Positions 5,801 to 64,000 of a DNA stretch of 64,000 bases are shown piece after piece; position 1 is the stretch's first letter; every line of letters begins with the position of its first letter. A program made the translations under genes and the position numbers. Source of the stretch: a virus; IMG/VR virus record IMGVR_UViG_3300045988_133728, positions 37,250 to 101,249 of that record; one strand, written 5' to 3'. Below the pieces are notes generated by a model, which did not search any database, was not told the origin of the DNA, and worked only from the letters and a program-made list of their open reading frames with translations.

Positions 5801-8800
5801 CGATCTTCTTACTGCGAGAGAAAAAGATGTGTATGATAAATACAAACAAGATTTTGATGATTATGTATCGTCTTTGGGTGACAGTCCTGTTAATCTCATA
5901 AAATCATTATCTGAGAAGGCTGATAGGCTTACAAGTCCGAGATCTGTGTATGAGGATAATAAAGCTATTATTGATATGGCTAAATCCAATTTAGAACCAG
6001 ATCAAAGGAAGGAACTTGATGATGCTATTTCTTCGTATGTTGATATAATGAACAGACGGGATAAAGGGGAGAAGGTTGACGAAGATAAGCTTGCCGATTC
6101 TGTATTTACCATAGAAGATCTTGGCCAGGTTGGAAACATCACAGATCTCCTTCCTTATATCGAACAAAACAGGATTATTGATAAAGGTCGTATTTCCGAA
6201 TCTACGTTAAGTAATTTTGGGGAGGATGATACCAATATAGATTCTCTTGTAAATGAGTTAGATGAATCCGATAATACGCCTGGAGCTAACATAGATAGTG
6301 CCCAAAATCCAGAGACGTTGATGGTTAGAAGAATATCCAACGATGGCAACGAAAGGTATGAAATTGCGGGTCTTAGAGCCGATAAATTTATATCTTCTAT
6401 AAAATCATTGGTTCCTATTCAAATAAGCTCTGAAACGAACGCTAATGGCACTAAAAGGTATTCTCTTAACATAGGTGGAGAAACGGCTACTATAATTGAA
6501 CTGCCTTATCATGCGAGATGGTCTATAGACAAAGAATCGGCTCGTGTTCTTAACCGTTACACAGACGTGTCTATTCAGGACGTGGGTAATTCCTATTCTT
6601 TGGTTTATAAGCGTCTTGATTCAGATGAATTGGTTCCGTACAGAACGGGTGTCGGATTCGGAGAGAATGAGGTAGATAAAATAGATCAGGAAGCATTATC
6701 TTCTTTGAAAAAAGGAGATAAGGTTAATCTCGAAATAGATGTAAATGATACTTATAATCAGTCTCTTTTTGCCGAATACAATGATGCTGTTCAGTCCGGC
6801 GATAAAAAAAGAATAGAATCTGCTGAGAATAAACTGGTGTCCAATATGGTTATCAAGGTCATGAGTGGGAACAGATTCGTTTCTGTTGTAAAAGCTGATA
6901 CAGGAGGCATAGATGGTATAAGTAAAATAAGAAGAACGGCTTTTAACAAGTGGAAGAAGGACGCCGGCCGGTCGGCTACCATCGGCGTCGGCACGCATGT
7001 TGTTGCCCAGACCCTTCCCGGAAGACCGGTGTTTAACATGAAGGTGAACGGTCAAGGATATGGCCAGATAGAAAATCTCCCTATTACCGAAAAAGGTGCT
7101 GAAAAAGTATCTGATGTTGGATATGTATTAAATGGCAAAGTCGTGCTTAAGAACGGATCTAAATACACAGGCTTCCCATTTGCTTATTCTATATTAAATG
7201 ACAAGGGGAATAATTACAAAAATGTAAGAGTTCCGGTAGTCGTCATCAAAGGTAAAAACGGTCTTAATTATCTTTTCCCAGTTAGCCTACGTTCTGTAGA
7301 ATCAGAGGAAGGGCAGAAATGGATGTTTTTTATAGATATGCTGCTTGAATCTGGTGATTCTGAATTGCCACAGATGGGTCAAGATGACATACAAGATCTT
7401 AATGCGTATCTAACCAAGTTAGGTCTTGATCCGGCTTCGTATCAAGTATCGTATTTGAATCCTATTTCAGGGCTTAGAAAAGCTCGTGAGGCTATAGAAA
7501 AATTATCTACGGTTCCTGATGTTGTTAAGTGGGTAGAAGATGAAAGCAGGAATGTGAAAGACATTGTGACGTCTGAAGTAGAATCTGGAATAGATTTCGA
7601 AGGTGAGATGTTTGTCGCTCCTAAGATCAGGATTCAGTTTGGCAAATCATCTTCCAGACCTAAATCGCTTATAGAGGATGATCTTCCTTTCTCTGATGAG
7701 GGTAAGACCGTTACTTCTAAGGTAGAAGATGTGGAAGTTTATGAAGAGGAAATGCCAGAGGAAGGGGCTGCCCGGGAGACTCAGCCGGTGCCATTAGCTC
7801 AGCCGGCTCCTGCGGCACAAGCTACGCAGTCTTTACCTGGCAAGAAGCGTACCTCCAGGAAAAACTTCTCTCTTATGTTAAACGAAATAGAATCTCATAT
7901 AGAAAAAGAAGGATTGCCGTCTTATGCTAATATTTTTGATTTTATAGCAAGGAAGATTGTAGGAGGTGATTTGAGGTTTCTTCGTGAGAGAGGTAATCCT
8001 AAAAGCCTTAAGGAAGAAATGGGATTAGAACCTAAAGGAACAGTAGGTGATAAAATATCCACTCCTTCCAGTAAAGGTGGTAAGACCTTAGAAGAATACG
8101 TTTCTTGGCTTCGTTCTCAAACAGATCAGGTGGTGGTTGATTATGTTGGGCCAAGATTTGATGAACAAATTATATCAGAGTTGAAAAACTTTTTGAAATA
8201 TATTAATTTTGTTCCAAGTAAGGCTTTGAATTATTCTCTTAGAGTCAATGGTATGGATACCCTAAAAGAATATGGCACAAAAGAGGAAGTAGAAAAAATG
8301 GAATCTGACATCAATAGTTTGGTTTCTGAAGTTTTGCCTACGGTAGATAATCAAACTGTAGAAGATGTTTCTACTGCAATAGAATCAAATAACTTGCCTG
8401 CCATATGGGAGCCTATGGAAAGCCTTGATATGACAAACGAGGAAAAAATAGAGTTTTTGAATAACGTAGCAGATTTCCTTAGTGGCATTCCAGAGTATGA
8501 TGCTGTTGTGGAGTCTATAGAGTCAGAATCAGATAATATTTTAAATAATGGAAAAGAAGGAAGTGCAGAAGGCGGTGCAGTACGCACTGAGGAAGATGGC
8601 GATAAAAAGGGAGATGGAGAAGGCAAAGGACAATCCAGAACAAATGTCGAAGTTAAAGGAAATGTCGAATTACCTGGATCTCAAGAAGGAAGAGTAGATA
8701 ACTATAGAAAGAACGGAGATAAGTTCTCTGACATTGCTGAAGTTACTTTATGGCTACTTAGAAGGGCTTCCGGCATAACCTCTATTCCGGAAGGAGAAGA

Positions 8801-9473
8801 GGTTTATGTAGAGGGAGATGAGGTTAATAGCATTATGACCGATATGGAATCAAGGTACGGGATAGACACCATCAACCACTCGCATACGACTAAGGCTATA
8901 AGGGATCTTAACGGCGTGTCGGGTTATAAAGTAGAATACGGCTTAACCTTTTTGACATACGATCCTTTTATTAGAATATCCAATCCAAGGAAAGAATCTA
9001 AGGCTGAGAAAGATGAGCTTCGTATATCCGAAGAGCCGCTTACTCACATATCAAGGGTAACAACCCCTTATTTCCTGTACGGCGGTGATGAAGCATATAC
9101 ATCTGTTCCGGCTAAGGTAGAGCCTATACCGGAGAAGATAATGGGTCGTAATGGTATTAAATTGGGTATGAGTGTAACTGAGCTAACCAAATTAGGGTAC
9201 AAAAAAGCTGGTGGAAACTGGATATATAAATCCTATATGAACTCAGGTGTGTATGATTTGTATAATATCAGTACCGGTGAAGCGTTTAGGGCGAAACCGG
9301 ATCTTGGAGTTAAGATAAGCTCCAGCGCATTCATCCGCTCTTTATCTCAATCTGGTAGAAAAATACAAAATATGATGAGCAACATGAGCCAGGAAGAGAT
9401 AGATAGGAATAAGAATCTTGTAGAAGGTTCTGATAATTCGGATTCGATAAATGAGTTAAATAAAGAGTGTTGA
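2814..9473 (+). CDS. giant protein (2219 aa), possibly a virion internal, ejection or tape-measure-like cargo protein
   Basis: A single uninterrupted 6.66 kb ORF. The N-terminal third has Gly-rich amphipathic/hydrophobic segments (GGLGVGSLGNIGAKLGGRIGAKLAARQAANRGIGSL). It has long coiled-coil regions and acidic low-complexity linkers (EDGDKKGDGEGKG). It is translationally coupled to the upstream and downstream genes. No polymerase motif was recognised. Confidence 0.75.
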   Translation: MADNNIDRYNPAAKTTYEDVARQRKLAEEENYTPATLPETTTPLVPNYMPGEGVYAQPKFPDYASRIAAAEYEEPYIAKEISNSYSEALARNSYRGATPAPPPLNPYGPKVSIRESHQMGNDGVWRTKYPNYIPGINNEDYYARRQSGWSKFWNGVGKFALKSALYGAQGVVSLPDKLINMASEGSYKAALNTNMDKFVGDLDQQIDMLLPHYYKKEVEDYNFGQKLFKDTGNFLWNDVLGNGMSFTVGAMISAYMTGGLGVGSLGNIGAKLGGRIGAKLAARQAANRGIGSLKSVFNDYVRKGVATGRNVGEAAKTMTLLATSAGFESSVEANSFMKQSESDFKDYYRKIYGRDPNAEEMAVFRNSNADVGSAIFAANMGIIGLSNWLLFGKYIGLGGKAIPGLEKRLNKHLFGLGTEVAKPGEMAIKITNPNIGQKIAGNVFNIMKRPVSEGLWEEGSQGAVQNTAEEYVKSRYDNVAMNGAVDVLDAISEGFKKQYTSKEGWTEIGIGAIIGSLFGMREGFFGVKEYSNSQILLERQVNEYNKASSNLNTAALNTLKKSMSLGPQVRSDAQSMTGKELDDAMFEKMSIDNQMGTLEDSAENFRQMIDMMPISEIAEANGMSLEEAKKYKDSIIDNYNNRLSDFRSAQSFAEDLIGDDSKIEFRKYVARNAFLGLQSESRMKDIASVIETLSGQPRVADALSTFSRLSDRARERAMAIRGIRSRIEELESEIEDLATRPRNVEGKDPQAESIQRKTKELESLRTNYNNSLSELSTLIGKEFSIEELVSKTESVLSSPLSPISSQDVIEAYDTLVAFDDYFNVKSRQEKKFTAKDKAMRSLVNEYRRSLMDYRNMNNFLSKMLDKRFLAEENRGFSKALSSLWSTPYKGDDKVPDFAEPNKVGEYDTDEVVDQAVSEGKISEDEAWTIKAFMHALDKVREDRMKEAEDDIKESPLTESVSDEDYEAAMDNPIMDNPIMVPAVRQSIIDKLYTGNADLLTAREKDVYDKYKQDFDDYVSSLGDSPVNLIKSLSEKADRLTSPRSVYEDNKAIIDMAKSNLEPDQRKELDDAISSYVDIMNRRDKGEKVDEDKLADSVFTIEDLGQVGNITDLLPYIEQNRIIDKGRISESTLSNFGEDDTNIDSLVNELDESDNTPGANIDSAQNPETLMVRRISNDGNERYEIAGLRADKFISSIKSLVPIQISSETNANGTKRYSLNIGGETATIIELPYHARWSIDKESARVLNRYTDVSIQDVGNSYSLVYKRLDSDELVPYRTGVGFGENEVDKIDQEALSSLKKGDKVNLEIDVNDTYNQSLFAEYNDAVQSGDKKRIESAENKLVSNMVIKVMSGNRFVSVVKADTGGIDGISKIRRTAFNKWKKDAGRSATIGVGTHVVAQTLPGRPVFNMKVNGQGYGQIENLPITEKGAEKVSDVGYVLNGKVVLKNGSKYTGFPFAYSILNDKGNNYKNVRVPVVVIKGKNGLNYLFPVSLRSVESEEGQKWMFFIDMLLESGDSELPQMGQDDIQDLNAYLTKLGLDPASYQVSYLNPISGLRKAREAIEKLSTVPDVVKWVEDESRNVKDIVTSEVESGIDFEGEMFVAPKIRIQFGKSSSRPKSLIEDDLPFSDEGKTVTSKVEDVEVYEEEMPEEGAARETQPVPLAQPAPAAQATQSLPGKKRTSRKNFSLMLNEIESHIEKEGLPSYANIFDFIARKIVGGDLRFLRERGNPKSLKEEMGLEPKGTVGDKISTPSSKGGKTLEEYVSWLRSQTDQVVVDYVGPRFDEQIISELKNFLKYINFVPSKALNYSLRVNGMDTLKEYGTKEEVEKMESDINSLVSEVLPTVDNQTVEDVSTAIESNNLPAIWEPMESLDMTNEEKIEFLNNVADFLSGIPEYDAVVESIESESDNILNNGKEGSAEGGAVRTEEDGDKKGDGEGKGQSRTNVEVKGNVELPGSQEGRVDNYRKNGDKFSDIAEVTLWLLRRASGITSIPEGEEVYVEGDEVNSIMTDMESRYGIDTINHSHTTKAIRDLNGVSGYKVEYGLTFLTYDPFIRISNPRKESKAEKDELRISEEPLTHISRVTTPYFLYGGDEAYTSVPAKVEPIPEKIMGRNGIKLGMSVTELTKLGYKKAGGNWIYKSYMNSGVYDLYNISTGEAFRAKPDLGVKISSSAFIRSLSQSGRKIQNMMSNMSQEEIDRNKNLVEGSDNSDSINELNKEC

Positions 9474-21939: not shown

Positions 21940-24900
21940 ATGGTATCAACGTGTATTATTAAAAGAGATAATAAAAAGAAAGTTGTTTCTGTCTCTACCA
22001 GATCAGGGGACAGGTCTATGTTGTTTGATAAAATAGCATCTGTTCCTCTTATGGAGAACAGGGAGCGGGCTACTACTGTTTTTAAAACCGTATTTTCCAA
22101 CAAGTTCTTAAAGGCTTTTGGCGACTGGAGAAAGAGAGTGCCTATCAACAAACAGGCTTATAATAAGGTAAAATCCAACATCGATCTTATCCCAGAAGCC
22201 TATAGAGAAAGGGTGCTGGATAAGGCTTCTAAGATGAGTAATCCTGTTCTTGTATCAAAATCAGATGCACCTTATGGGATTCAAGAATCAGGCTTCGGAT
22301 TCTATAGCCAAGATCTGGGTGATAATATTATGTTGGTGGATGCTATGATCCCATCAAGTATTTCCGTACCGGAAGAACCAGGAATAGACGCCGGGCAGTA
22401 TTTACAAGATGCTATATCTTCGGACTTCACTCCCGTATCTATGGTACAGGATAAGGGTGTTAATTATATGGTTATAAAAGACGGTCTTAAGATATTTAGC
22501 CCAGAAGAGCTACCACAGACAGATTCTAATCCTGTGGGTGTAACGTATCAGACCGGAGAGCCTCGTTTGTTTTTCATGAACGATCGTAGTCAATTATTTG
22601 AAGATTACGGAGAAGCTCTTCGCTCTGGCGGGAATGATATCAGAATAGGGTTCTTATCAGGCACCGTTCAAGAATCTACCGTGGATGGCGTGGCAGACAT
22701 TACTTACAAAGCTGGAAAGTATGTTCTTAATAATCCCAAATCTTTTATACCGGTCATGACCGCTTCTGCTTCTACTTCTTTATCAACAAAAGGTGGTATA
22801 ATTAACTACCTTATAAAGAAAGGTCTTTTGTCCGGATCTAAGATATTCGATCCTGAAACAAGAAGCTATTATCTTACAGGAGAAGGTCATACAGGACAAA
22901 TTAGACTTTTCAATTCAGCCTTATCATACACCGAGCTCCGTAATCATTTTGGTTCCGATGTTTCCATGAACGACCAAGGTATGATAACCATAAGCTCGTT
23001 GGATAACAGTAAGGTAACTATGAGACTCGCCACCGGAGGAACGGAAAGGATTAGTAGGAAACAGATAAAGAACGATCTTAAGTCAGGAAGATACAATGAA
23101 TTGGACGCCAAGTACGATCATTTTGATGCGCTTGTAGTTTCATTCATATTAGAAGATAACGATCTTTATGCTGATACTAAAGCTAAGATCGTATCAGATT
23201 ATAGCGGGCAGGAACGTGACCAACGAAATTCTATTGTCGAGATACTGAAAACGCTTGGCGTTAGTGTCATAGGTATGACCGACTATATAGAGAAGTACCA
23301 AACCAAATACGGGCACGAACCTTCTGCTAAGGCATTGGCGGATATTGCTAATAACGTAATAGCAGTTGGTGAAGATGCTACTTTATCTGATTTAGTAGAA
23401 GAAACAGCCCACTTTCTTGTAGAGGCATACAGAGATCAGAATGCTGTTGAGGCTGTTCTGCAAGATGTAGAAGGTACGGAAGAGTGGAACCAGTATGCAG
23501 GTCAGTATTATAATACATACGGTAAAGCGTATGAAGGAGCTGAGCTTGATAATGCTGTTAGGAGAGAAATTCTTGGAAAGATCCTCGCCAGGGAGATGCA
23601 GGCCGGCACAGCACAGGCGCCGGTAGAGCCCACCTCCTTCCTGGGGCGCGTCCGGCAGCTTTTCTCTGGAATCGTAAGCTGGCTTAAATCAGCTTTATCA
23701 ACCCAAAGACAAGATTTGAATAACGTTATTAAAAACATTCGTGATCTTGCCATTACTGACATAGATAAAGGATTTGACACCTCTCTGTTAAAGGATAATG
23801 ACTTTACATTATACTCCCTTTCTTCTATGAACAAGAACAAGTTTCTTGAGTCTAAGATCAGATCACTAAGAAAAACATTAAGAGACTTACGTCAGATAAG
23901 CTCTGATAGGGCTGTAACTACGTCTATGACCCTTGCGCAGCTTAAGACCATAGAAGATAAGATAAATAAGGTAGAGACCGAAATAGACAAGAATGAGATG
24001 GCGGCTGCCATGAACAGCATGATCTCCACAGCCGAAGCTCAGGTCAGATACTTAAGCAATGTGGTGAACACCATCCTTCATGGTGATACCAAAGACGGCA
24101 AGCTTCACTTCAATACCAATGATCGAAAGAACGTAGATATTATCAACAATCAGGTTCTTCCGATCATGAACGATCTTCGAGGATATATCCGTAACAGAAG
24201 TACCGAATTTGATGAACGTGAAAAGCAGGATTATACAAATAGGATCAACACCGTCATTGCCGACATCAATGGTATTCAGTCTGATATTAAATCAGTACAA
24301 GACCTTGATGAAAGTACGTTGCTTGATAAGTTAATGAACGAACTTCATGTGCCGGCAGATAAGGTAAAGAGAGTAAAAGAATTTTTCGACAAGGTTCAAC
24401 ACGATGTTTCTTGGATAAGTAGGTGGTTTGGTATATTAGAGCATTCTTCCAGTCCGTTCAATAACGCTCTTGGAGCTATGATTGCCAAAGACAATTACAA
24501 TGCGATGGTGAATGCCCAGCCCGCCATATCCGATTTCCTGGCATATGCGAAAAAGCATGGTTTTAACAAATCTGAATTTGAAAAACTGCTTCAGAAAGTA
24601 GACGGCAAAACTTCTAATTACCTTCGTAGTGCTCTTGATATGGCTAAATACGATCGTAATAAGAAGCTGGCGCAGATGCGAGCGTTTGCGACCGCCATGA
24701 ACATAGAGATATCAGAAGAAGAAATCAATGATGTGGTTGACAATAACCGTAATTACGTATTTAAAAGAGAAGTAGTTGACAAGGACGGAAATACGGTTAC
24801 TGAGAACGCTAAATTTAAACCGTCGTCCGATAGGGTTAATACCGATATTTTTACTATCGAACAGGAAAAAATCTATACGGAACAGATGGAAAAATGGGAT

Positions 24901-27900
24901 GCTGAAAATTCGGAACTGGAATTTAGCGAAAGTTATGCCACAAGAATGGAATCCATATACAAAAAGGCTGAAGAAGAATTAGGGCATCCGGTTTCTCAAA
25001 CAACCAAAGAATACCTTAATGCTCTTTCTCGGCAGAAGCGGATATTGAGGCAGCCTTTTATTGATAGCAATGGTAATTTTGATGAGGTTGCTTACTATAA
25101 GAGTAGTAACTACGAAGAAGAAGGACTGCTTCGTAAACAACGTAAGGAAGCAGCTTCAGAATACATATATGTAGGAACCAGGAGAGTGGAAAAAACTGGC
25201 GACCAACTTAAGATGGCCAAAGAAATACAAGCCATAAATGAAGTTTGGAGAAAAGAATCAAATAATGCCACTAATGCCGTATCAGAATCGTTTTTGCAAA
25301 AATTAAGAACGATTCAGAACGAGTCAGGAGGAGAAGCTGCGTTGAAGACACTTATGTTGGGAGGGCACCTGTCATTTAACGATCGGTTTTGGAATGACAT
25401 AGAATCAGAACAGTCGGCACGTACCGAATCAAATAACAAGGCTTCGTATCTTAAAATGGCACAAGACATCATTAGTTCTACGACAAGTGATAGAGATGCG
25501 ACTGACGTGGATTCGATTGTAAAAGATATAGAAAAAAATAAGGCTATTATCAAGGAAATAATCAGCAACAACCGTGACGTGGCTGATATCGGAGAAATCA
25601 ATGAAGCAACATTTACCTCATCTGAAAGAGATGCTTTTAGGGCCGCATCTGAAGCTATTGAAGCCGATTACGCTATTTTGATAGATTATGCTAAGATGGT
25701 GGGTCTTGAAGATATTGATAAGTACCTTACTAAAAGCAGTAAGGCTGAAAACGAAGTAAATCAGTCTTATTTAAATGCTCTTGCTGACTCCAAGGAAGTG
25801 GAATGGAAGTTCGTACAACGTCATACTACGGCGAAGAAAGCAAAAAGGATTCAGGCTTTAAGGGATAAGCTGTTTAAGGCTGCTGATAACCGATATCTGT
25901 TTACCGTATCTGAAACCAACTACCTGTCAGAAAAGCTTGGAATAAGCAAAGAATTAGACGGTAGAGATTTCAGGAATGCTGTTAATACTAAGATGGCCAG
26001 CTTATTTTTAAATAATACAAGAGAAGAGGGTATAGAAGCTGACATAAAAGCAGGTATAGAAGAAGCTAATGCGATCGTTAATGAATTTGCCAGGAGCCAG
26101 GTCTTTTCGTACTATAAACGCATGGCACCTACCGGATATACGGCTATGATTGGTAAAATAGGCCGCGGTGAGATAGATGTGGCGCAGATGGTTAAAGACG
26201 TACAGAACGGAACATCCACCCAAGATTATGGCATGGACATATCATACCTGTCTTTCGACCCTGCAAGGGCATGGGTGGCTGAATCTGAAGCCGAAAATAG
26301 CGGTCGTAACCCTGATTATGTAAAAGATCATGGGTATGGTCATCGTATGCCCAAGAAAAGCCTGTATCGTGATGAATCGTATTTCAATGACTTTGGTATC
26401 AAGTATGATGCTGACGGTAATGAGGTTGCTACTAAAAACGTAGAGCAATGGAATATGATTCAAAAACTTAAGGAAATAAAAAGACAATCCCTTTCCTTAT
26501 ACAAAGAGCAGAGCCCGAACCTGTATGCTATTCCACAGATATCCAAACAAGATATAGAACGTGTGGAAGGATTGGGTATCAGCCTTAAAAGTACGGTCAG
26601 GAACTTCGTATCCGACTTATGTCTTGATCGCGTAGATGACTCCCTGTATGGTAAAACACGCCAGGGTGAGGTATATGATCCGGAAGATAGGGTTCGGTCC
26701 ATACCTAAATACTACATATATGAATTAGAGAACCAAGATGACGTATCTCATGATTTTGGTTACTCTTATTCGATGCTTATGATGCAGTCATCGTTATACA
26801 ACGAAAAGCAGAAGTCTATAGAGCTCGCTCAAGGACTGGGGCAGATGTTACTGAATAAACAATTTGAAGGTGGTAAAAAGGCTGAAGCAACCCAAGCATA
26901 TCAGATGTTCAGGGACTTCTTCAACGATCATTATTATGGCATTAGGATGAACACCAAAAAACTTACGGTGAACATCGGAGGATATACGGTAGACCTTACA
27001 AGAATTATGATGGCTGTTGAAAGATTTATGTCGGTCATGAACTTGGCACTGTCTCCGTTTGTGGCAGCTACCGGCGCCTTAACAGGTCATATCAACCTCA
27101 TCATGGAATCTGCCGTAGGACAGTATATAAGCAAAGACTCCCTTAAATACGCATCGGCTGAATTTTCACGCCTTGCTCCATCTTGTATAGCAGAAACCGG
27201 AGACATAGATAGGAAAAGCAAATTATATGTCATAGGTGAGAGAATGGGGATATTCAATATCCGAAATCGTATGTATGGTGCCGGATACAATAGAGTGGCC
27301 AGGACCTTAATGCGTTCACCTATGTATGCTTTTATGGAAATCCTGAACTACCCTCTTGATCCGCAGGTTATGATTGCTACTATGGACAATGTTCGTTATT
27401 ACAAAGGTCGGTTCTACACGTTCCAAGATTTCAAGATGGAAAAAGAACGCAATAAAGAACAGAGTACCATAAAAAGAGAATGGAATGCATTAAAAGATCA
27501 TACTTTATGGAGTATGGTAGATGTCGTGGATGGGAAGGTGGTTGTAAAGCCCAGATCGGGTGTTACTGTTGAGGAAGTTGAAACCCAGATGGCTATAACC
27601 AGAAATCAAGTTCGTAGCTTGTCGCAGATATGTAACGGATCTTTGAATGAAGAAAACCGAACTGCTGCATCGCGCAACTGGATAGCCAGGTTCATGACCG
27701 CCCACCGAGGATGGTTGGTGCTGGCGGCTCAACGTCTGTGGAAAAGACGTGGCTTCAATTTCCAGACAATGCAAGAAGAGGAAGGGTTGTCAATTACGTT
27801 AAAGAATATGATAGCCAAAACATTTAGCTTAGCTTCCGAGTCTGGTATGAAAAACATCATAGATGCCTGGAACGAAAATAAAGACAATATGAATGAGGTA

Positions 27901-28386
27901 GAGAAAACCAATATAAAACGTCTCAGTGTCTATGCCGGCACGTTCCTTATCATGCAAGCCGTATCCATGCTTCTTGCCGGATGGCGTGATGATGATGAAA
28001 ACGAAGAAAGTTGGCTTACTCAATTTGGATCCTATGTCGGATTCAGAACCATAAACGAAATAGCTTCACAGATGCCGTTTATTATGGAGCTTAATGTGGT
28101 AGATATCATTAACGATCCGTTTGTTATGGGGCGGAAGTTGAAGGATCTTACTGATCTTAGGAATTACTCACTTGATAAAGTAACATCCGGCACATACAAA
28201 GGAGAGTCTAAGTTATTTAGGCAACTCGCCAAACAGACGTTTATCAAACAATGGTATAATATCAAGACGCCGGAAGACATAGCGCGCGCCTATAATTGGT
28301 GGCAGCAGACAAACAACAAGTCAATGATGTTCTTCATCGGCGCTACTCCTGATTCGGAAGGGGACGATGACGTTAGTTACAAATAG
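21940..28386 (+). CDS. giant protein (2148 aa), second putative virion cargo or internal protein
   Basis: A 6.4 kb uninterrupted ORF with extensive coiled-coil segments. No DxDGD, Walker or other catalytic motif was recognised by eye. An MRRRF-family gene follows it, as for the first giant ORF. Confidence 0.75.
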   Translation: MVSTCIIKRDNKKKVVSVSTRSGDRSMLFDKIASVPLMENRERATTVFKTVFSNKFLKAFGDWRKRVPINKQAYNKVKSNIDLIPEAYRERVLDKASKMSNPVLVSKSDAPYGIQESGFGFYSQDLGDNIMLVDAMIPSSISVPEEPGIDAGQYLQDAISSDFTPVSMVQDKGVNYMVIKDGLKIFSPEELPQTDSNPVGVTYQTGEPRLFFMNDRSQLFEDYGEALRSGGNDIRIGFLSGTVQESTVDGVADITYKAGKYVLNNPKSFIPVMTASASTSLSTKGGIINYLIKKGLLSGSKIFDPETRSYYLTGEGHTGQIRLFNSALSYTELRNHFGSDVSMNDQGMITISSLDNSKVTMRLATGGTERISRKQIKNDLKSGRYNELDAKYDHFDALVVSFILEDNDLYADTKAKIVSDYSGQERDQRNSIVEILKTLGVSVIGMTDYIEKYQTKYGHEPSAKALADIANNVIAVGEDATLSDLVEETAHFLVEAYRDQNAVEAVLQDVEGTEEWNQYAGQYYNTYGKAYEGAELDNAVRREILGKILAREMQAGTAQAPVEPTSFLGRVRQLFSGIVSWLKSALSTQRQDLNNVIKNIRDLAITDIDKGFDTSLLKDNDFTLYSLSSMNKNKFLESKIRSLRKTLRDLRQISSDRAVTTSMTLAQLKTIEDKINKVETEIDKNEMAAAMNSMISTAEAQVRYLSNVVNTILHGDTKDGKLHFNTNDRKNVDIINNQVLPIMNDLRGYIRNRSTEFDEREKQDYTNRINTVIADINGIQSDIKSVQDLDESTLLDKLMNELHVPADKVKRVKEFFDKVQHDVSWISRWFGILEHSSSPFNNALGAMIAKDNYNAMVNAQPAISDFLAYAKKHGFNKSEFEKLLQKVDGKTSNYLRSALDMAKYDRNKKLAQMRAFATAMNIEISEEEINDVVDNNRNYVFKREVVDKDGNTVTENAKFKPSSDRVNTDIFTIEQEKIYTEQMEKWDAENSELEFSESYATRMESIYKKAEEELGHPVSQTTKEYLNALSRQKRILRQPFIDSNGNFDEVAYYKSSNYEEEGLLRKQRKEAASEYIYVGTRRVEKTGDQLKMAKEIQAINEVWRKESNNATNAVSESFLQKLRTIQNESGGEAALKTLMLGGHLSFNDRFWNDIESEQSARTESNNKASYLKMAQDIISSTTSDRDATDVDSIVKDIEKNKAIIKEIISNNRDVADIGEINEATFTSSERDAFRAASEAIEADYAILIDYAKMVGLEDIDKYLTKSSKAENEVNQSYLNALADSKEVEWKFVQRHTTAKKAKRIQALRDKLFKAADNRYLFTVSETNYLSEKLGISKELDGRDFRNAVNTKMASLFLNNTREEGIEADIKAGIEEANAIVNEFARSQVFSYYKRMAPTGYTAMIGKIGRGEIDVAQMVKDVQNGTSTQDYGMDISYLSFDPARAWVAESEAENSGRNPDYVKDHGYGHRMPKKSLYRDESYFNDFGIKYDADGNEVATKNVEQWNMIQKLKEIKRQSLSLYKEQSPNLYAIPQISKQDIERVEGLGISLKSTVRNFVSDLCLDRVDDSLYGKTRQGEVYDPEDRVRSIPKYYIYELENQDDVSHDFGYSYSMLMMQSSLYNEKQKSIELAQGLGQMLLNKQFEGGKKAEATQAYQMFRDFFNDHYYGIRMNTKKLTVNIGGYTVDLTRIMMAVERFMSVMNLALSPFVAATGALTGHINLIMESAVGQYISKDSLKYASAEFSRLAPSCIAETGDIDRKSKLYVIGERMGIFNIRNRMYGAGYNRVARTLMRSPMYAFMEILNYPLDPQVMIATMDNVRYYKGRFYTFQDFKMEKERNKEQSTIKREWNALKDHTLWSMVDVVDGKVVVKPRSGVTVEEVETQMAITRNQVRSLSQICNGSLNEENRTAASRNWIARFMTAHRGWLVLAAQRLWKRRGFNFQTMQEEEGLSITLKNMIAKTFSLASESGMKNIIDAWNENKDNMNEVEKTNIKRLSVYAGTFLIMQAVSMLLAGWRDDDENEESWLTQFGSYVGFRTINEIASQMPFIMELNVVDIINDPFVMGRKLKDLTDLRNYSLDKVTSGTYKGESKLFRQLAKQTFIKQWYNIKTPEDIARAYNWWQQTNNKSMMFFIGATPDSEGDDDVSYK

Positions 28387-37233: not shown

Positions 37234-37399
37234 TGGACTCCCTTTAAGTAGTTAAACCATATATCCTCCAGCTTCTCCTGAAGTTCAAATGCTTTCTTGA
37301 AATTCCCACATCTTACAGCAACGTCTCTCATATATTCTACGTTTATAACTTCCGGATCTTGCCGGTATTTTGTTCTTAACTTTTGAACGTCCTCGTATT

Positions 37400-38763: not shown

Positions 38764-39302
38764 ATCTCATATTCTATTAAATATATTTAAAGCTATTCAT
38801 ATGTTTTAATACATCCCCTCGGAGACCTTCCGGTCTCCTTGGTAGATGTAAATCCCGTTAGGGATAAGTCAGGATTTCTCCTGTAAGTACCCATCGCCAA
38901 TGTTATAAGAGGTTTTATATAATGGCAACACTGTTTCGTCAAATACACTACTCCTGTTTAATCACCATCCTTAGAGCAAGAAACTTGGATAAACATTCCT
39001 TGGTAACTATTTATTCTCAAATAACGTAGCCTCTGTTTCGAGGCTTAGGCTAATAACCCGATCTCTGAAAGAGATGTATTAAACTTTTATAATAGAATTA
39101 TATTGGGTTAATACTATTTGGGGTTATAACACCGATCATAATGCTTGGTCAGTTCTTCTGGTTCTAAATCTTGTCCAAAATCCATGTTAAAAATATCGTA
39201 ATTAGTAAAGCACTTAAAATCACTGTCCCTGCCGGCAGGAAATCTATGAATGCTGCTTTTGCTTCTTCAATTAGGCCCAAGTGTAACCTTGGGCCATTGT
39301 AT

Positions 39303-56623: not shown

Positions 56624-57091
56624 TTAATACTGTGAATCATATTTTCTTTCTCTCCCGCTGTCTTCCCCTATAGGATTATCCCATCCGTATTTTACAGCCG
56701 TAGCTTTAAATAGAGGTAGCCCGTAAAATCTATAATCATCCTCATCCCAGTCTTCAAGACCTTCTTCCAGGATGTAGTTCCACATCATTACACATTCAAA
56801 CATTAAACTGGCTGATATTCCTCTCTGATTTAATGCCTTTTCAAAACCGAATCTTACATCTTCTTCAAGCTGTTTCAAAACATTCTCCCTGGTAAATTCA
56901 ACTACAGTACTGTTCCACCTTTCTTCGTTATTGTATTCTTCGTTCGGCTCCATACCGAAATCCTTTATCATGTTATATGGGATAAATTTAGCCAGTCTGT
57001 TAAAATCTCTACCGTCTAAACATTTTGATGCTAATCCTTTAAGTTGTTCTAATGTTTTCATAAGCAATTTTGTTTTATAGGTTAATCCCAT
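56624..57091 (-). CDS. hypothetical protein
   Basis: ORF of 155 aa. Confidence 0.5.
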   Translation of the reverse strand: MGLTYKTKLLMKTLEQLKGLASKCLDGRDFNRLAKFIPYNMIKDFGMEPNEEYNNEERWNSTVVEFTRENVLKQLEEDVRFGFEKALNQRGISASLMFECVMMWNYILEEGLEDWDEDDYRFYGLPLFKATAVKYGWDNPIGEDSGRERKYDSQY

Positions 57092-57267
57092 CCTCCAGTA
57101 GTGTACAAAGATACATCTTCCTCCTCTACGTTTACACCTTTAATAGCCTGTAGAAGTTTTTTCTTTGTCTCCCGGCACATATTGTAACCATATCCTTTAT
57201 ACCGATATGAGCGCTCCCATGTACTTACTGGAAAAGGAATATTTTCGTCAATGACCAGCCTCTTCAT
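57082..57267 (-). CDS. hypothetical protein
   Basis: ORF of 61 aa. Confidence 0.35.
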   Translation of the reverse strand: MKRLVIDENIPFPVSTWERSYRYKGYGYNMCRETKKKLLQAIKGVNVEEEDVSLYTTGGWD

Positions 57268-57442
57268 ATGAAGATGTTCGAAGAATTTCTCATGATAGAG
57301 TAGTTTGTACTCGTATGCTACTATACTTGCAGATGAGAATGGAAAATAATCATAATATTTGTATCGTTTTCATTGTTCACTATCTAACTAATATACGACC
57401 CTGGCCACAGACAGCCAGGCCGACCTCATGGCAGGCTCCACC

Positions 57443-60878: not shown

Positions 60879-61688
60879 TTAAATACTTAACTCTTCAATG
60901 GTCAAGCCTTTTTCTTTTGCCCATTTTAACATTGCGCATAATTCTGTTTCTGACTTATATTTCGGATCACGCCACGCCCATCCGAATTTATCCAGGACAT
61001 GATGATATAATTCGTCGGCCTTTGCCGTGTAAATGTCTTTGAATAAATGCTCTGAACCTTCCGGTATAAGCATCTCTGTTGTTGCAAAATCAGAATATGA
61101 TAAACATTCGTAAGCATGTACTGTTATTTCACTCCACGCTTCTCCGGCTTTAAATCCAAATTCTTTTACAAAAGCCAAAGTTAGATACATATTTAATAAT
61201 ATTGTTACATCATATCCAGAATCCGACTTTCTTTCTATTATTTCCTTTTCAAATTCCTTTAAATCTTCAGGCCCTAAAAAGATGTATCCTGATACCGACC
61301 TATAATTAGCCTCCGCATACTTCTTGCATTTATCATCATTGATAATCTTACCAATGTTAGATGACATCTTTTGCCTCCATTCATCACAAAACTCTACCTC
61401 TACGTTCATCCAATCAGTATCATAATTATATTCTCTCGGATGTCCGACCGATGTTACCTTTATGTTATTCACGCCATATCCGTAAAGGCGTTCACTTACC
61501 TCATTCGCCCATTCCTGTACAAAAGGAATAAACTTATTGCAATAAGAATCAAAATCAAAATCCGATTCTTCCTCATATTCCGGCATCTCTTCATAATCCT
61601 GTTCAAAGAAATATCGAGGATCTGCTATTGTTTCGTAGAAACTTACGTTAATGAAACAAAACTCGTTAGTTGTCGTTTTTAATATCAT
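60879..61688 (-). CDS. hypothetical protein
   Basis: ORF of 269 aa. Confidence 0.55.
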   Translation of the reverse strand: MILKTTTNEFCFINVSFYETIADPRYFFEQDYEEMPEYEEESDFDFDSYCNKFIPFVQEWANEVSERLYGYGVNNIKVTSVGHPREYNYDTDWMNVEVEFCDEWRQKMSSNIGKIINDDKCKKYAEANYRSVSGYIFLGPEDLKEFEKEIIERKSDSGYDVTILLNMYLTLAFVKEFGFKAGEAWSEITVHAYECLSYSDFATTEMLIPEGSEHLFKDIYTAKADELYHHVLDKFGWAWRDPKYKSETELCAMLKWAKEKGLTIEELSI

Positions 61689-61939: not shown

Positions 61940-62058
61940 ATTATTATTGTTTTATGTATTATACAAATACAAAGAGCGCATACCTTCACAGGCCGGCGCT
62001 CCTTTCAATAAAAATGAAAAAACTAATATTACATAAACATATTGTTTTCTACTCTTTA

Positions 62059-62292
62059 TTACAATACTTTTGTTCCGCAATTATTATATCTTCCGTACTC
62101 TTTTTTCGTATCATTCAAGATTTCAAAAACCATCTTCTTGTGATCTTCGTTTGGTAACCTATCCTTAACAGCCGATATTACGCCCGCTATAGACGTAAAG
62201 CCTGAATCTGTTATTGAACACAGCAACACGCCTCTGTCGGCTCCGGTGCTTATTGCTGACGCCTTTATAATATCATTCTTATATATTCTCAT
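62059..62292 (-). CDS. hypothetical protein
   Basis: ORF of 77 aa. Its ATG lies about 25 nt downstream of tRNA-like element 1. Confidence 0.45.
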   Translation of the reverse strand: MRIYKNDIIKASAISTGADRGVLLCSITDSGFTSIAGVISAVKDRLPNEDHKKMVFEILNDTKKEYGRYNNCGTKVL

Positions 62293-62312
62293 AACTTTTT
62301 TGTTTTATTGTT

Positions 62313-62420
62313 TGTGAGATGCCCAGAATCGAACCAGGACCGGCACATACGCACCGGCACGCCGCGTCATCCCCTCTATGATGCAGAAATAGGCATGCCT
62401 ATCCTCACGAACCGACATGC
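62313..62420 (-). tRNA. tRNA-like element 1 (possible non-canonical tRNA, or a tRNA 3'-half remnant)
   Basis: In minus-strand sense the sequence reads ...CCTGGTTCGATTCTGGGCATCTCACAAAC. That gives a T-arm (CCTGG/TTCGATT/CTGGG, with two G-U pairs) plus a 7-nt acceptor-like 3' strand. I could not fold a full cloverleaf by eye. Further in, it contains a GGCATG/CATGCC hairpin and the ATAGGCATGCCTAT palindrome. Confidence 0.3.
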
Positions 62421-62467
62421 CAAAACCCAAAACTTAATTTGATGAATAAAATAGATTAACAAAAATA

Positions 62468-62782
62468 CTATTCTAATTCTTTTATAATATCTTTCACAAT
62501 ATTCAGCCTTACCTCCTTCGTTTCTGGACTAATACAACCAAACCACCCATAAAACTTTCTTGTTTCCTCTGGTTCTGTGGCCATACTTATCTTCTCCTCC
62601 AATTCCGGGAAATATATTCTCACCATTTCGTCTGAACGAAACTCATAGACATTTTTATGTGTTTTGAAATACATAAACACTACATTTCTTAACGCAACAC
62701 ATATGTATTCCCCATCCTCTAACCTATCAATCATCTCATATACCTTTTTCCATATGAATAATCGCTCTTCTTTTGTAAACAT
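62468..62782 (-). CDS. hypothetical protein
   Basis: ORF of 104 aa. Confidence 0.45.
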   Translation of the reverse strand: MFTKEERLFIWKKVYEMIDRLEDGEYICVALRNVVFMYFKTHKNVYEFRSDEMVRIYFPELEEKISMATEPEETRKFYGWFGCISPETKEVRLNIVKDIIKELE

Positions 62783-62796
62783 ATCCTTCTTTATTT

Positions 62797-63138
62797 TTAT
62801 GGTATTATTTGACTGTATGCAGACTTTTCCATGTACACAATATTATGCTCCTGTCCAAATATCTTCTTTGCCACCTCTTTCTTTATCGCACAATATCTTC
62901 CTGTACGATACGGATTCTTTTGATCTGATCCATCCTCGACTTCGATAATAAAACAGCCTCCGTCATCTATTATCTTTTTGCAATCGTCACATACTCCGCC
63001 CGTGCATATATGATGCGGCGCCTGACCTTTGATATTATTTCCTAATAAAGCAATGCCCATCTCTGCACCACATATCATGCAGACTTCTATAGACGGATTC
63101 AATCCGTGCTCTGGGTGTAATGTGATACCATCTTTCAT
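62797..63138 (-). CDS. Cys-rich putative zinc-binding protein (start at the ATG at 63138, preceded by the AAGGAGGAAAG ribosome-binding site)
   Basis: MKDGITL... with C..C...HHIC...C..C...C. The upstream part of the tool ORF overlaps the tRNA-like element. Confidence 0.45.
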   Translation of the reverse strand: MKDGITLHPEHGLNPSIEVCMICGAEMGIALLGNNIKGQAPHHICTGGVCDDCKKIIDDGGCFIIEVEDGSDQKNPYRTGRYCAIKKEVAKKIFGQEHNIVYMEKSAYSQIIP

Positions 63139-63165
63139 TTTCTTTCCTCCTTTGTTTTTAATGTT

Positions 63166-63265
63166 GTGTGAGATCGCCGGAATCGAACCGACTTGCTGCA
63201 CCATGAATCCCATAAATCAAATGCTCCGATCTTCGCAGATGGGAGCATTCTGTCTAAAGCATAAG
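63166..63265 (-). tRNA. tRNA-like element 2 (paralog of element 1)
   Basis: In minus-strand sense the sequence reads ...GTCGGTTCGATTCCGGCGATCTCACACAAC. The T-arm GTCGG/TTCGATT/CCGGC is followed by a 7-nt acceptor-like strand. The 5' partner AAGATCG pairs in 6 of 7 positions, but the span is only about 64 nt, too short for a canonical tRNA. Confidence 0.3.
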
Positions 63266-63480
63266 AAAATTAATGAAGAAAATTTTTCTCACTTACGCCA
63301 TAGCATCTAAAATAGCTATCAACACTATTTCTATGACAAGCATAATAGAGAATGTCTTAAATATCTTTTTCATATCTCCTCCTTTTTTATCTGTTCTTTT
63401 CACGTTCCACAATAAACTGTTCCGGATCTGCTCCGACCTACGCTCCACCTACAACCGCAGACCTTAGCCCAAGGCGCCGC

Positions 63481-63741
63481 CTACTCCCCCTCTATGGCAG
63501 CCTGTTCGTACTTACAAATCCAATCTCCATCTATACAACTATCACTACGCGATAATAAACATTTATCCTTATAACAATCATAAAAAATACACCTATCACA
63601 ACTGTAATCCTTAACGTCTACACAGCTAACTACCTTAGCATATACTATTCCATCACTGCCTTCTATTCCTTTTACCCCGAAAATAGAACCTTCTACCTCC
63701 TTACTCAAATCTAAGTCAGGCGCAAAGTCATATACGTTCAT
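63481..63741 (-). CDS. Cys-rich mini-protein (CDRCIF family paralog)
   Basis: VVSCVDVKDYSCDRCIFYDCYKDKC...C..C, paralogous to the 42475-42672 protein. Confidence 0.45.
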   Translation of the reverse strand: MNVYDFAPDLDLSKEVEGSIFGVKGIEGSDGIVYAKVVSCVDVKDYSCDRCIFYDCYKDKCLLSRSDSCIDGDWICKYEQAAIEGE

Positions 63742-63824
63742 GTTGTTTATGTTTTAATTGTTAAACATTCCGATTGAAAAAAAAATACTCACATAATGCA
63801 GTCCTTAACTCTTACCTACAGAAT

Positions 63825-64000
63825 ACTGTTTTAAAAACGCTGTAAGTCTTAATTTTGTTGGAAAATCCTACATTGTGCTGTTTTAAAGCACTGCAATCCT
63901 TAATTTTGTTGGAAGAAACTACAAAATGCTGTTTTAAAGCTCTGATCTATTGAATTTTGTTGGAAGAAACTACAAAATGCTGTTTTAAAGCTCTGATCTA
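63825..64000. repeat. tandem direct repeats, period about 51 bp, at least 3.4 units, truncated by the window end
   Basis: Units start at 63825, 63877, 63928 and 63979. All share CTGTTTTAAAGC...AATTTTGTTGGAAGAAACTACAAAATG, with a variable core of about 12 nt. Confidence 0.7.

Follow-up and report, generated by a model that had tools for sequence, protein, structure and literature searches.

The window analysed here is a stretch of 64,000 nucleotides (nt) of viral DNA, positions 37,250 to 101,249 of IMG/VR record IMGVR_UViG_3300045988_133728. It belongs to an epsilon crAss-like phage and has 95% identity to crAssE-Sib (OR575929, 151 kb, human gut), which has been described as an epsilon crAss-like phage (PMC11054128). 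The plus strand encodes giant virion proteins, and the minus strand carries a long block of replication genes and small unknown genes. Two tRNA-like elements, E1 and E2, lie on the minus strand, each shortly before the start codon of a small leftward open reading frame (ORF). They are conserved RNA structures of the gene-sense strand, and they are not tRNAs. We tentatively propose that they are processing signals in the phage mRNA.

A first-pass annotation of the window had placed two tRNA-like elements on the minus strand, and both were found at those positions. The T-arm with its stem of 5 base pairs (bp) and the acceptor-like strand that it described are present in E1 and E2, and their extents have now been fixed. 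In each element, an acceptor-like stem of 6–7 bp is stacked coaxially on the 5-bp T-stem, with the 7-nt T-loop UUCGAUU. The acceptor 3' strand directly follows the T-arm, and its 5' partner lies 42–58 nt upstream. For E2, the best 5' partner had been put about 64 nt away, but it is GGGAUU at 63211–63206, and E2 is 42–44 nt long. The 22-letter consensus quoted for the shared tail, TTCGATTCYGGSCRATCTCACA, has one letter too many and finds no match even with 3 mismatches; the string that the elements truly share is TTCGATTCYGGSSATCTCACA. Nor are the tails as alike as had been thought, since that of E1, ATCTCACAAACA, is one base shorter than that of E2, ATCTCACACAACA, and they end 18 nt (E1, ATG at 62292) and 26 nt (E2, ATG at 63138) before the start codon rather than about 20–25 nt. 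That annotation did not include four features described below: the upstream hairpins of the GNRA class, a third paralogue, the conservation across many phages, and the mosaic breakpoints that coincide with the tails.

The sequence GGTTCGATTC occurs exactly twice in the window, at 62326–62335 and 63180–63189, and the 28-nt consensus GGTTCGATTCYGGSSATCTCACAMAACA matches the E1 and E2 sites in the window and nothing in 100 shuffles. E1 has a cloverleaf-like outline with no anticodon loop. Folding of 24 E1 variants with RNAalifold gives this same outline, and the arm that stands in place of the anticodon arm has an 8-bp stem and a 4-nt loop; E2 has just its 13-nt linker there. The earlier observation that neither element makes a full cloverleaf holds. 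A nearby GG is common to E1 and E2, within CRYGGYG, and could imitate a D-loop.

Conservation and pairing across the family

A motif scan of IMG/VR found at least 119 stretches with such elements, and most of these hold two copies, spaced by about 850 or 1250 nt. The covariance model R1, built from E1, scores E1 itself at 106 bits and E2 at 29.3 bits; with model R2, E2 reaches 74 bits. The model built from E1 also finds a third paralogue, E3, in crAssE-Sib (20.7 bits, E = 0.004). E3 starts right at the stop codon of the ORF before it, which means that transcription must pass through it, and its end lies 25 nt from the next ATG. In 64 loci, the three elements are found on one strand in the order E3-E2-E1. 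E3 lies 1.7–2.3 kb upstream of E2 and therefore falls just beyond this window, in which the family model, run with filters off, finds E1 and E2, the next best match having 12.8 bits and E = 2.7. A search of GenBank phages for similar sequences returned crAssE-Sib alone. More distant phages were reached through homologues, 50–59% identical, of a 269-residue protein encoded at 60879–61688. These gave E4, E4', E5, and E2', a distant orthologue of E2 (Table 1), and such elements, with new stem sequences, persist where the neighbouring protein is only 50–54% identical. Diversity within the elements is low, 0.01–0.08, which is as low as that of coding sequence, and the T-loop UUCGAUU is found in nearly every copy. 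By contrast, the types have unrelated central domains: E2 has a 13-nt linker, E1 the cloverleaf-like structure with its 8-bp hairpin, and E3 a stretch of 32 nt. No Rfam family matches the elements, and literature searches on tRNA-like elements in crAss-like phages found no description of them.

Pairing was tested across types in a spliced alignment (acceptor 5' strand, T-arm, acceptor 3' strand), in which 38 distinct minihelices represent the six types E1, E2, E3, E4, E5, and E2'. Spliced alignments and alignments based on covariance models were used, as a MAFFT alignment of E1 and E2 misplaced the 5' strands. Across the 38 sequences, 93.0% of the cells are paired, versus 73.6% in shuffles (none of 500 reached the observed value), and sliding of the partner strand gives at most 59.6%. 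Ten of the 12 minihelix pairs have been altered on both sides and yet remain paired, a result reached by 1 of 500 shuffles, and the covariation score is 0.671 versus 0.268; much of this signal stems from a handful of paralogue types. The comparisons of E4 with E4' and of E2 with E2', in which both sides of the stem have changed, are independent confirmations. In E1 alone, all substitutions are compatible with the structure, and 97.8% of the cells are paired versus at most 53% when slid; the changes within E1 are all one-sided.

The pairing also identifies the strand. Counted from the pair table, 89 of 456 pair cells (about 20%) are G-U or U-G. On the complementary strand these become A-C mismatches, and the pairing falls to the level of the shuffles. 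Thus, the helix is a feature of RNA from the gene-sense strand.

Table 1. The elements, their parts, and the features beside them. Positions are those of the window unless another genome or locus is named.
Feature	Position or locus	Strand	Sequence or structure
E1 minihelix	62374–62315	−	GGGGAUG-ACGCGGCGU-GCCGGUGCGUAUGUGCCGGU-CCUGG-UUCGAUU-CUGGG-CAUCUCA
E1 acceptor-like stem	62373–62368 with 62321–62316	−	flanking G62374 and A62315 mismatched
E1 mini hairpin	62367–62359	−	3 bp, CGG loop
E1 hairpin	62358–62339	−	8 bp, GUAU tetraloop
E1 T-arm	62338–62322	−	CCUGG UUCGAUU CUGGG
E1 upstream hairpin	62392–62421	−	8-bp lower stem, 1x1 internal loop, GUUC/GGAU upper stem, GUGA tetraloop
E1 leader	62293–62314	−	C, then AAACAAUAAAACAAAAAAGUU, up to ATG 62292–62290
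ORF after E1	62059–62292	−	77 amino acids
E2 minihelix	63212–63169	−	UGGGAUU, 13-nt linker CAUGGUGCAGCAA, GUCGG UUCGAUU CCGGC, GAUCUCA
E2 acceptor-like stem	63212–63206 with 63175–63169	−	
E2 T-arm	63192–63176	−	
E2 upstream hairpin	63219–63251	−	9-bp lower stem, 1x1 internal loop, 4-bp upper stem, GCGA tetraloop
E2 U-rich tract	63213–63221	−	UUUGAUUUA, after upstream hairpin
E2 leader	63139–63168	−	C, then A-rich ACAACAUUAAAAACAAAGGAGGAAAGAAA, up to ATG 63138–63136
ORF after E2	62797–63138	−	113 amino acids, zinc-ribbon-like
E3	crAssE-Sib 508–568	−	UGGUUGU, 32 nt, UCCGG UUCGAUU CCGGA, GCAACCU
E4	L285	gene strand	UUUCGCU/AGCGGAA
E4'	L287	gene strand	UUUCGUU/AACGGAG, both-sided change versus E4
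E2' (distant E2 orthologue)	L287	gene strand	GGGACU/AGUCUC, both-sided change versus E2
E5	L287	gene strand	GGACUUG/CAAGUCC

Hairpins, leaders, and gene boundaries at the elements

E1 and E2 are each preceded by a hairpin, and a hairpin of the same design precedes E2', E4, and E4'. It consists of a lower stem of 5–9 bp, a small internal loop, and a 4-bp upper stem, usually closed by G-U, with a GNGA tetraloop (GCGA, GUGA, or GAGA; GNRA class) as the cap, and it is followed by a U-rich tract. At E4, this tract doubles as the acceptor 5' strand, which starts 1 base past the hairpin. Relatives show compensatory changes in the lower stem of the E2 hairpin (AAUGC/GCAUU, AGUGC/GCACU, AACGC/GCGUU), and the variants of the E1 hairpin, GGCAUGCC, GACAUGCC, and GGCAUGUC, stay paired through wobble or Watson-Crick changes. 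Set against an intrinsic terminator, the hairpins are stable and are followed by UUUGAUUUAU at E2 or UAUUUCU at E1. A simple terminator scan omitted them because the loop and the internal loop lie outside its rules.

On the 3' side of each minihelix, a C is followed by 20–29 nt of A-rich, single-stranded leader up to the ATG. In E1–E4, the distance from the end of the stem to the ATG is 22–31 nt, and every copy is on the gene strand. Recurrent A-rich leaders with an AUAAAAC motif are found at genes of the window, in which Shine-Dalgarno-like motifs are scarce (9 of 54 minus-strand genes, versus a background of about 10%). Searches of the neighbouring ORFs against Pfam and PHROGs gave nothing informative. 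A 138-residue ORF runs through E2, but the commonest E2 variant (GGTGCGGTAGG) has an in-frame TAG, so this ORF was taken as spurious.

The homology to crAssE-Sib breaks exactly at the tails of the elements, at 62298–62309 for E1 and 63153–63156 for E2, and nucleotide diversity leaps from 0.05 to 0.30 at 62299. In crAssE-Sib, an extra gene is inserted directly after each element, bounded by AATAAAAC. The elements mark the exact points at which accessory gene cassettes are exchanged between strains. In one contig, an E2/E1 hybrid is joined within the T-loop. Homologous recombination in the conserved tails can explain the breakpoints.

Other features of the window were also noted. Directly upstream of the E1 hairpin, an AT-rich intergenic stretch at 62422–62479 (−) is near-invariant in 49 contigs, with a diversity of 0.002–0.03, below that of coding sequence. 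It is a possible promoter, and consensus scans gave no match there; scans of the window for promoters of the sigma-70 type and of the Bacteroidetes type (TTTG..TAnnTTTG) showed neither enrichment nor any match at the elements. E3 and E2 are separated by about 700 nt of non-coding DNA, and here a tandem array at 63816–64000, reaching the end of the window, has 51-nt units in at least 3.5 copies that match at 82–88%, and many IMG/VR contigs terminate 650–1300 nt upstream of the E2-proximal gene. Either the array is a point at which assemblies break, or it is near a genome terminus, and it could be a site of regulatory, origin, or promoter repeats. On the plus strand, two giant ORFs, at 2814–9473 and 21940–28386, encode 2219 and 2148 amino acids, and the latter matches a PHROG virion structural protein family. 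One of the two is presumably the virion RNA polymerase discussed for crAssE-Sib (PMC11054128).

Comparison with known RNA and DNA classes

The T-arm of the elements is that of a tRNA, with 5 bp, a 7-nt loop of the form UUCRANY, and the G53-C61 pair, and it is stacked on an acceptor stem, usually of 6 bp. However, ARAGORN reports 0 tRNA and 0 tmRNA (transfer-messenger RNA) over the window, and the Rfam tRNA model (RF00005; gathering threshold 29 bits) has no match in 62000–64000 even at E ≤ 10. In crAssE-Sib, E3 is not called as a tRNA, while the six real tRNAs score 43–68 bits. Given these results, the lack of a 7-nt anticodon loop, and central domains that differ completely between types, we rejected a real tRNA and likewise a tmRNA; a divergent or intron-containing tRNA, which the first-pass annotation had offered as one interpretation, is not supported. 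At gathering thresholds, the one Rfam match in the window is a HEARO (IscB omega-type) RNA elsewhere, at 38883–39127 (−), with 95.2 bits versus a gathering score of 83. It nearly coincides with a 360-nt segment, 38765–39125, that is absent from crAssE-Sib, and its neighbours are exonuclease-like and flotillin-like ORFs, with no obvious IscB; it looks like a solo guide-RNA insertion.

The tmRNA model (RF00023) is the only related Rfam model that touches E1, aligning GGGGAUGA..GG together with the T-arm and acceptor, at 6.5 bits and E = 7.2, far below the gathering threshold of 47. The tRNA-like domain of tmRNA shares with the elements an acceptor combined with a T-arm, the lack of an anticodon arm, a GG in a short D-loop analogue, and, in the case of E1 and E2, a G3-U70 pair. 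It differs in being joined to an mRNA-like domain, pseudoknots, and a tag reading frame, none of which was found at the elements. Furthermore, G3-U70 is present in E1, E2, and E2' but not in E3 (G-C), E4 (U-G), or E5 (A-U). Among the 38 distinct sequences, position 3:70 is GU in 22, GC in 10, AU in 4, and UG in 2, and some variants of E1 and E2 have A-U or G-C in its place. As the pair is not kept across types, alanine identity is not supported as a trait of the family.

A tmRNA-like gene was seen in another crAss-like phage, Cellulophaga phage phi14:2 (NC_021806), at 4031–4502 (+), with 46.0 bits versus the Rfam gathering threshold of 47 and E = 2.6e-16. ARAGORN gives it the tag GSSVQKLAMVA. 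It lies upstream of the coding sequence at 4602, in early-region DNA stripped of all earlier ORF annotations, and a second tRNA-like fragment is at 1773–1848. According to the phi14:2 preprint, two long intergenic regions in this part of the genome give rise to early non-coding RNAs that are highly abundant and lack an explanation.

YrlA RNA, like the elements, has a non-decoding tRNA-like module and is found in bacteria and phages. The YrlA model (RF02553) has no match on E1 and E2 at E ≤ 10, and the flanks UCAUAGAG and ACAAACAAUA are unpaired by inspection, so there is no Ro-binding stem at the elements; their location also differs from that of YrlA, and the Ro60 locus is outside the window. 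That locus is in crAssE-Sib, where a YrlA-like RNA (OR575929 72601–72705; L122 22601–22705, +; 28.5 bits, E = 7e-4, below gathering) lies directly upstream of tRNA-Tyr, tRNA-Lys, and a gene annotated as Ro60-related. Together they look like a phage Ro60/Y-RNA module.

Could the elements be remnants of tRNA 3' halves, such as att cores, as had also been suggested? A scan of the genomes of 185,579 bacterial and archaeal species, one each, found no tRNA gene with this 3' half. There were 10 matches, nine of them chance matches with no T-stem, and the remaining one is on a 3.9-kb phage-like contig that was binned with a Veillonella metagenome-assembled genome. In addition, the elements have their own covarying 5' strand, and their G-U pairs are confined to the sense strand. 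We therefore rejected a host-tRNA or att origin. Of the three interpretations offered by the first-pass annotation, the one that fits all the evidence is a processing or regulatory signal; the tRNA and att-remnant options are not supported.

The hairpin promoter of phage N4 is a DNA hairpin of the template strand, with a stem of 5–7 bp and a 3-nt loop, upstream of the start site. The elements do not match this type: they have a 7-nt loop, wobble pairs that restrict the stem to the sense strand, and, in E3, a position directly after an ORF. The layout that they do share is that of the t-element and mascRNA class, since they are non-decoding, on the sense strand, between or before ORFs, and have a hairpin upstream.

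Proposed function and the alternatives

What, then, is the function of E1 and E2? Our preferred explanation, which is tentative and in our view has somewhat less than an even chance of being right, is that they are anticodon-less, tRNA-derived processing signals cut, we infer, by RNase P and RNase Z. As a substrate, RNase P, RNase Z, and the CCA-adding enzyme need no more of a tRNA than an acceptor/T-arm minihelix whose T-loop is intact, and the part of the tRNA retained in the elements, the acceptor/T-stem minihelix with a canonical T-loop, would be what the processing enzymes recognise. The elements would be transcribed within leftward, gene-sense transcripts of the epsilon crAss-like phage. 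Host RNase P would cut where the minihelix begins on its 5' side, and the upstream RNA would then end just past the GNRA-capped hairpin, which would protect its 3' end. RNase Z or exonucleases would cut after the discriminator and free the downstream mRNA, with an unstructured A-rich leader of 20–29 nt that would suit a genome in which Shine-Dalgarno use is rare. The elements would thereby punctuate a polycistronic transcript and delimit exchangeable gene cassettes.

By this explanation, E1–E3 would be descendants of ORF-adjacent phage tRNAs that have survived as processing signals. The phage's own tRNAs have no encoded CCA, and they have N73-C trailers as the elements do. In Bacteroides phage crAss001 (MH675552), complete tRNA genes lie 1–18 nt before ORFs and 3–4 nt after them on the same strand, as with tRNA-Gly at 5164–5236 before the coding sequence at 5238 and tRNA-Met at 5721–5807 before that at 5826; tRNA–mRNA co-transcripts are therefore a feature of this virus order. 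These arrays belong to the same virus order as the elements and have an A-rich leader, ACUAAAUUAAAGUGAAUAAU-AUG, after tRNA-Met, but they consist of complete, ARAGORN-positive tRNAs with anticodons, whereas E1–E3 have lost the anticodon domain. ORF-adjacent tRNAs of the crAss001 type are a likely evolutionary source of the elements. Inside the crAss001 tRNA array, at 4142–4233 (+), there is also a 92-nt acceptor/T-arm minihelix, ARAGORN-negative and unannotated as a tRNA, which may be a tRNA of unusual form or another element of the E1/E2 kind.

Elements of this kind are known from mitochondria and from eukaryotic long non-coding RNAs (lncRNAs); what is new is a conserved family in gut phages, the coupling to GNRA hairpins, and the position at cassette boundaries. 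At the t-elements of plant mitochondria, cuts by RNase P and RNase Z define the 5' and 3' ends of mRNAs (PMC1920247). The t-elements, and the tRNA punctuation of animal mitochondria, resemble the phage elements in placing tRNA structures, non-decoding in the t-elements, between coding regions and in the retention of the acceptor/T-arm part. They differ in that the phage elements are bacteriophage-borne, occur at three sites per genome, are coupled to a GNRA hairpin, and have a cleavage that is predicted. In work by Wilusz, Freier and Spector from 2008, the 3' end of MALAT1 and MEN-beta is reportedly made by an RNase P cut 5' of mascRNA, and this small RNA is said to be matured by RNase Z and the CCA-adding enzyme. 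There, too, a non-decoding tRNA-like structure lies directly downstream of a structure that protects the 3' end, which is the layout of E1, E2, and E4. However, MALAT1 is a eukaryotic nuclear lncRNA with a triple helix, not a hairpin, and the phage element is followed after 22–31 nt by an ORF. The early genes of phage T7 are separated by RNase III sites, long irregular hairpins whose cleavage leaves 3' ends stabilised by hairpins. These are likewise intercistronic structured RNA signals in a phage early transcript, but the enzyme is another one, and the hairpins are irregular rather than tRNA mimics.

Several observations weigh against processing by RNase P and RNase Z. Folded as single sequences, the isolated elements reach energies no better than those of shuffles (z = +0.40 and −0.50), so the structural argument rests on the comparative data. 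In those data, the 5' partners of E4, E5, and E2' were picked by complementarity, which somewhat inflates the pairing statistics. Position 1:72 is mismatched in 27 of the 38 distinct sequences, and the acceptor/T stack is thus usually 11 bp, not 12. If the upstream hairpins were efficient terminators, scant read-through RNA would reach E1 and E2. The central domain is conserved within each type, with CGCGGCGUGCCGG invariant in the 24 E1 variants, which come from closely related contigs, and this conservation could reflect a function beyond that of a cleavage signal. Finally, with three copies per genome, the elements are not a general punctuation system.

One alternative is that minihelices of 42–60 nt are excised and act as stable, trans-acting tRNA-like small RNAs, either as CCA-tailed decoys for tRNA-targeting defence nucleases or as mimics of the tmRNA domain or the alanine minihelix that engage AlaRS, EF-Tu, or SmpB. 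We think this unlikely. The G-U pair at 3:70 of E1, E2, and the distant E2' would suit it but is not a family trait, and the tmRNA match to E1, alone among Rfam models, has a score far below threshold and no tag reading frame. Besides the Ro60 gene and the YrlA-like RNA, which would also suit trans action, crAssE-Sib encodes a nucleotidyltransferase of the CCA-adding/poly(A)-polymerase type. In the window, all that is present of this enzyme is the last 87 residues at the C-terminus, encoded at 57085–57345 (−) with 98% identity, and other sequence has replaced the N-terminal catalytic part. The function of the elements is therefore not dependent on this enzyme, and we rejected such a dependence. 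The tmRNA-like gene in the early region of phi14:2 and the central domains conserved inside each type are consistent with small RNAs, but no terminator follows the elements, which run directly into the ORF. In a version that combines both roles, which we regard as improbable, the excised minihelices would have CCA added and act in trans as decoys of tRNA or tmRNA domains besides being cut sites. With their G3-U70 pair, E1 and E2 might be aminoacylated by AlaRS, or they might, early in infection, titrate out SmpB, EF-Tu, or the tRNA-targeting defence nucleases of the host. If this were true, a highly abundant group of human gut viruses would have a phage-encoded system of anticodon-less mini-tRNAs.

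It is likewise unlikely that the elements are uncleaved, cis-acting structures of the 5' untranslated or intercistronic region that stabilise the mRNA or control translation. In one form of this idea, the flush 5' helix left by RNase P cleavage blocks decay that depends on the 5' end; in another, the element is a platform that binds a tRNA-binding factor beside the ribosome-binding region. The short, fixed spacing of 22–31 nt to the start codon, the joint conservation of element and leader, and the association with an upstream hairpin, which suggests a composite structured leader, are all compatible with such a role. However, a generic stabiliser does not predict the retention of exactly the minimal substrate of RNase P and RNase Z alongside free variation in the rest of the element, because any stable hairpin would serve, and no candidate binding protein was found among the neighbouring ORFs, for which Pfam and PHROG were uninformative.

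A role at the DNA level is very unlikely. It could be that of part of a terminator–promoter module, of an N4-like hairpin promoter used by the virion RNA polymerase, or of an att-like or recombination site through which cassettes are exchanged, comparable to the PeSL modules of T4-type phages. The early promoters of crAss-like virion RNA polymerases are not known, and the AT-rich stretch upstream of the E1 hairpin, with its diversity of 0.002, would be a place for one, but E3 abuts an ORF and leaves no room for a promoter, and there is no outstanding match to a sigma-70-like or Bacteroidetes-type (TTTG...TAnnTTTG) promoter. The breakpoints at both tails, the inserted genes flanked by AATAAAAC, and the E2/E1 hybrid would fit recombination sites, although the breakpoints are explicable by homologous recombination in the conserved tails. 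Moreover, the G-U cells are mismatched on the other strand, the acceptor 5' strand covaries, which neither an att core nor a promoter needs, and there was one true match among the 185,579 species genomes. The authors of the crAssE-Sib study could not tell whether phages of this kind become integrated in the genome of the host (PMC11054128).

The least probable explanation is that the elements have no function of their own today, being either tRNA pseudogenes in decay or real tRNAs of a highly unusual kind. In its favour, their T-arm and 3' trailer are like those of the phage's tRNAs (for example, the tRNA-Cys T-arm GGCGGUUCGAUUCCGCC), and crAss-like phages do carry tRNA arrays interleaved with ORFs. 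Against it, several independent types have lost the anticodon domain differently and have all kept the minihelix, substitutions in more than 100 contigs and in distant relatives leave the structure intact, the diversity is as low as that of coding sequence, no anticodon loop can be drawn, and both ARAGORN and Rfam gave negative results.

The Crassvirales rank with the most abundant viruses of the human gut, and their gene expression is poorly understood. A family of anticodon-less tRNA mimics before ORFs gives a testable handle on how crAss-like mRNAs are cut or stabilised. The family is absent from Rfam and could become a new model for the annotation of the gut virome. If the predicted cleavage by RNase P and RNase Z is true, tRNA punctuation would extend from mitochondria and MALAT1-type RNAs to the mRNAs of bacteriophages.

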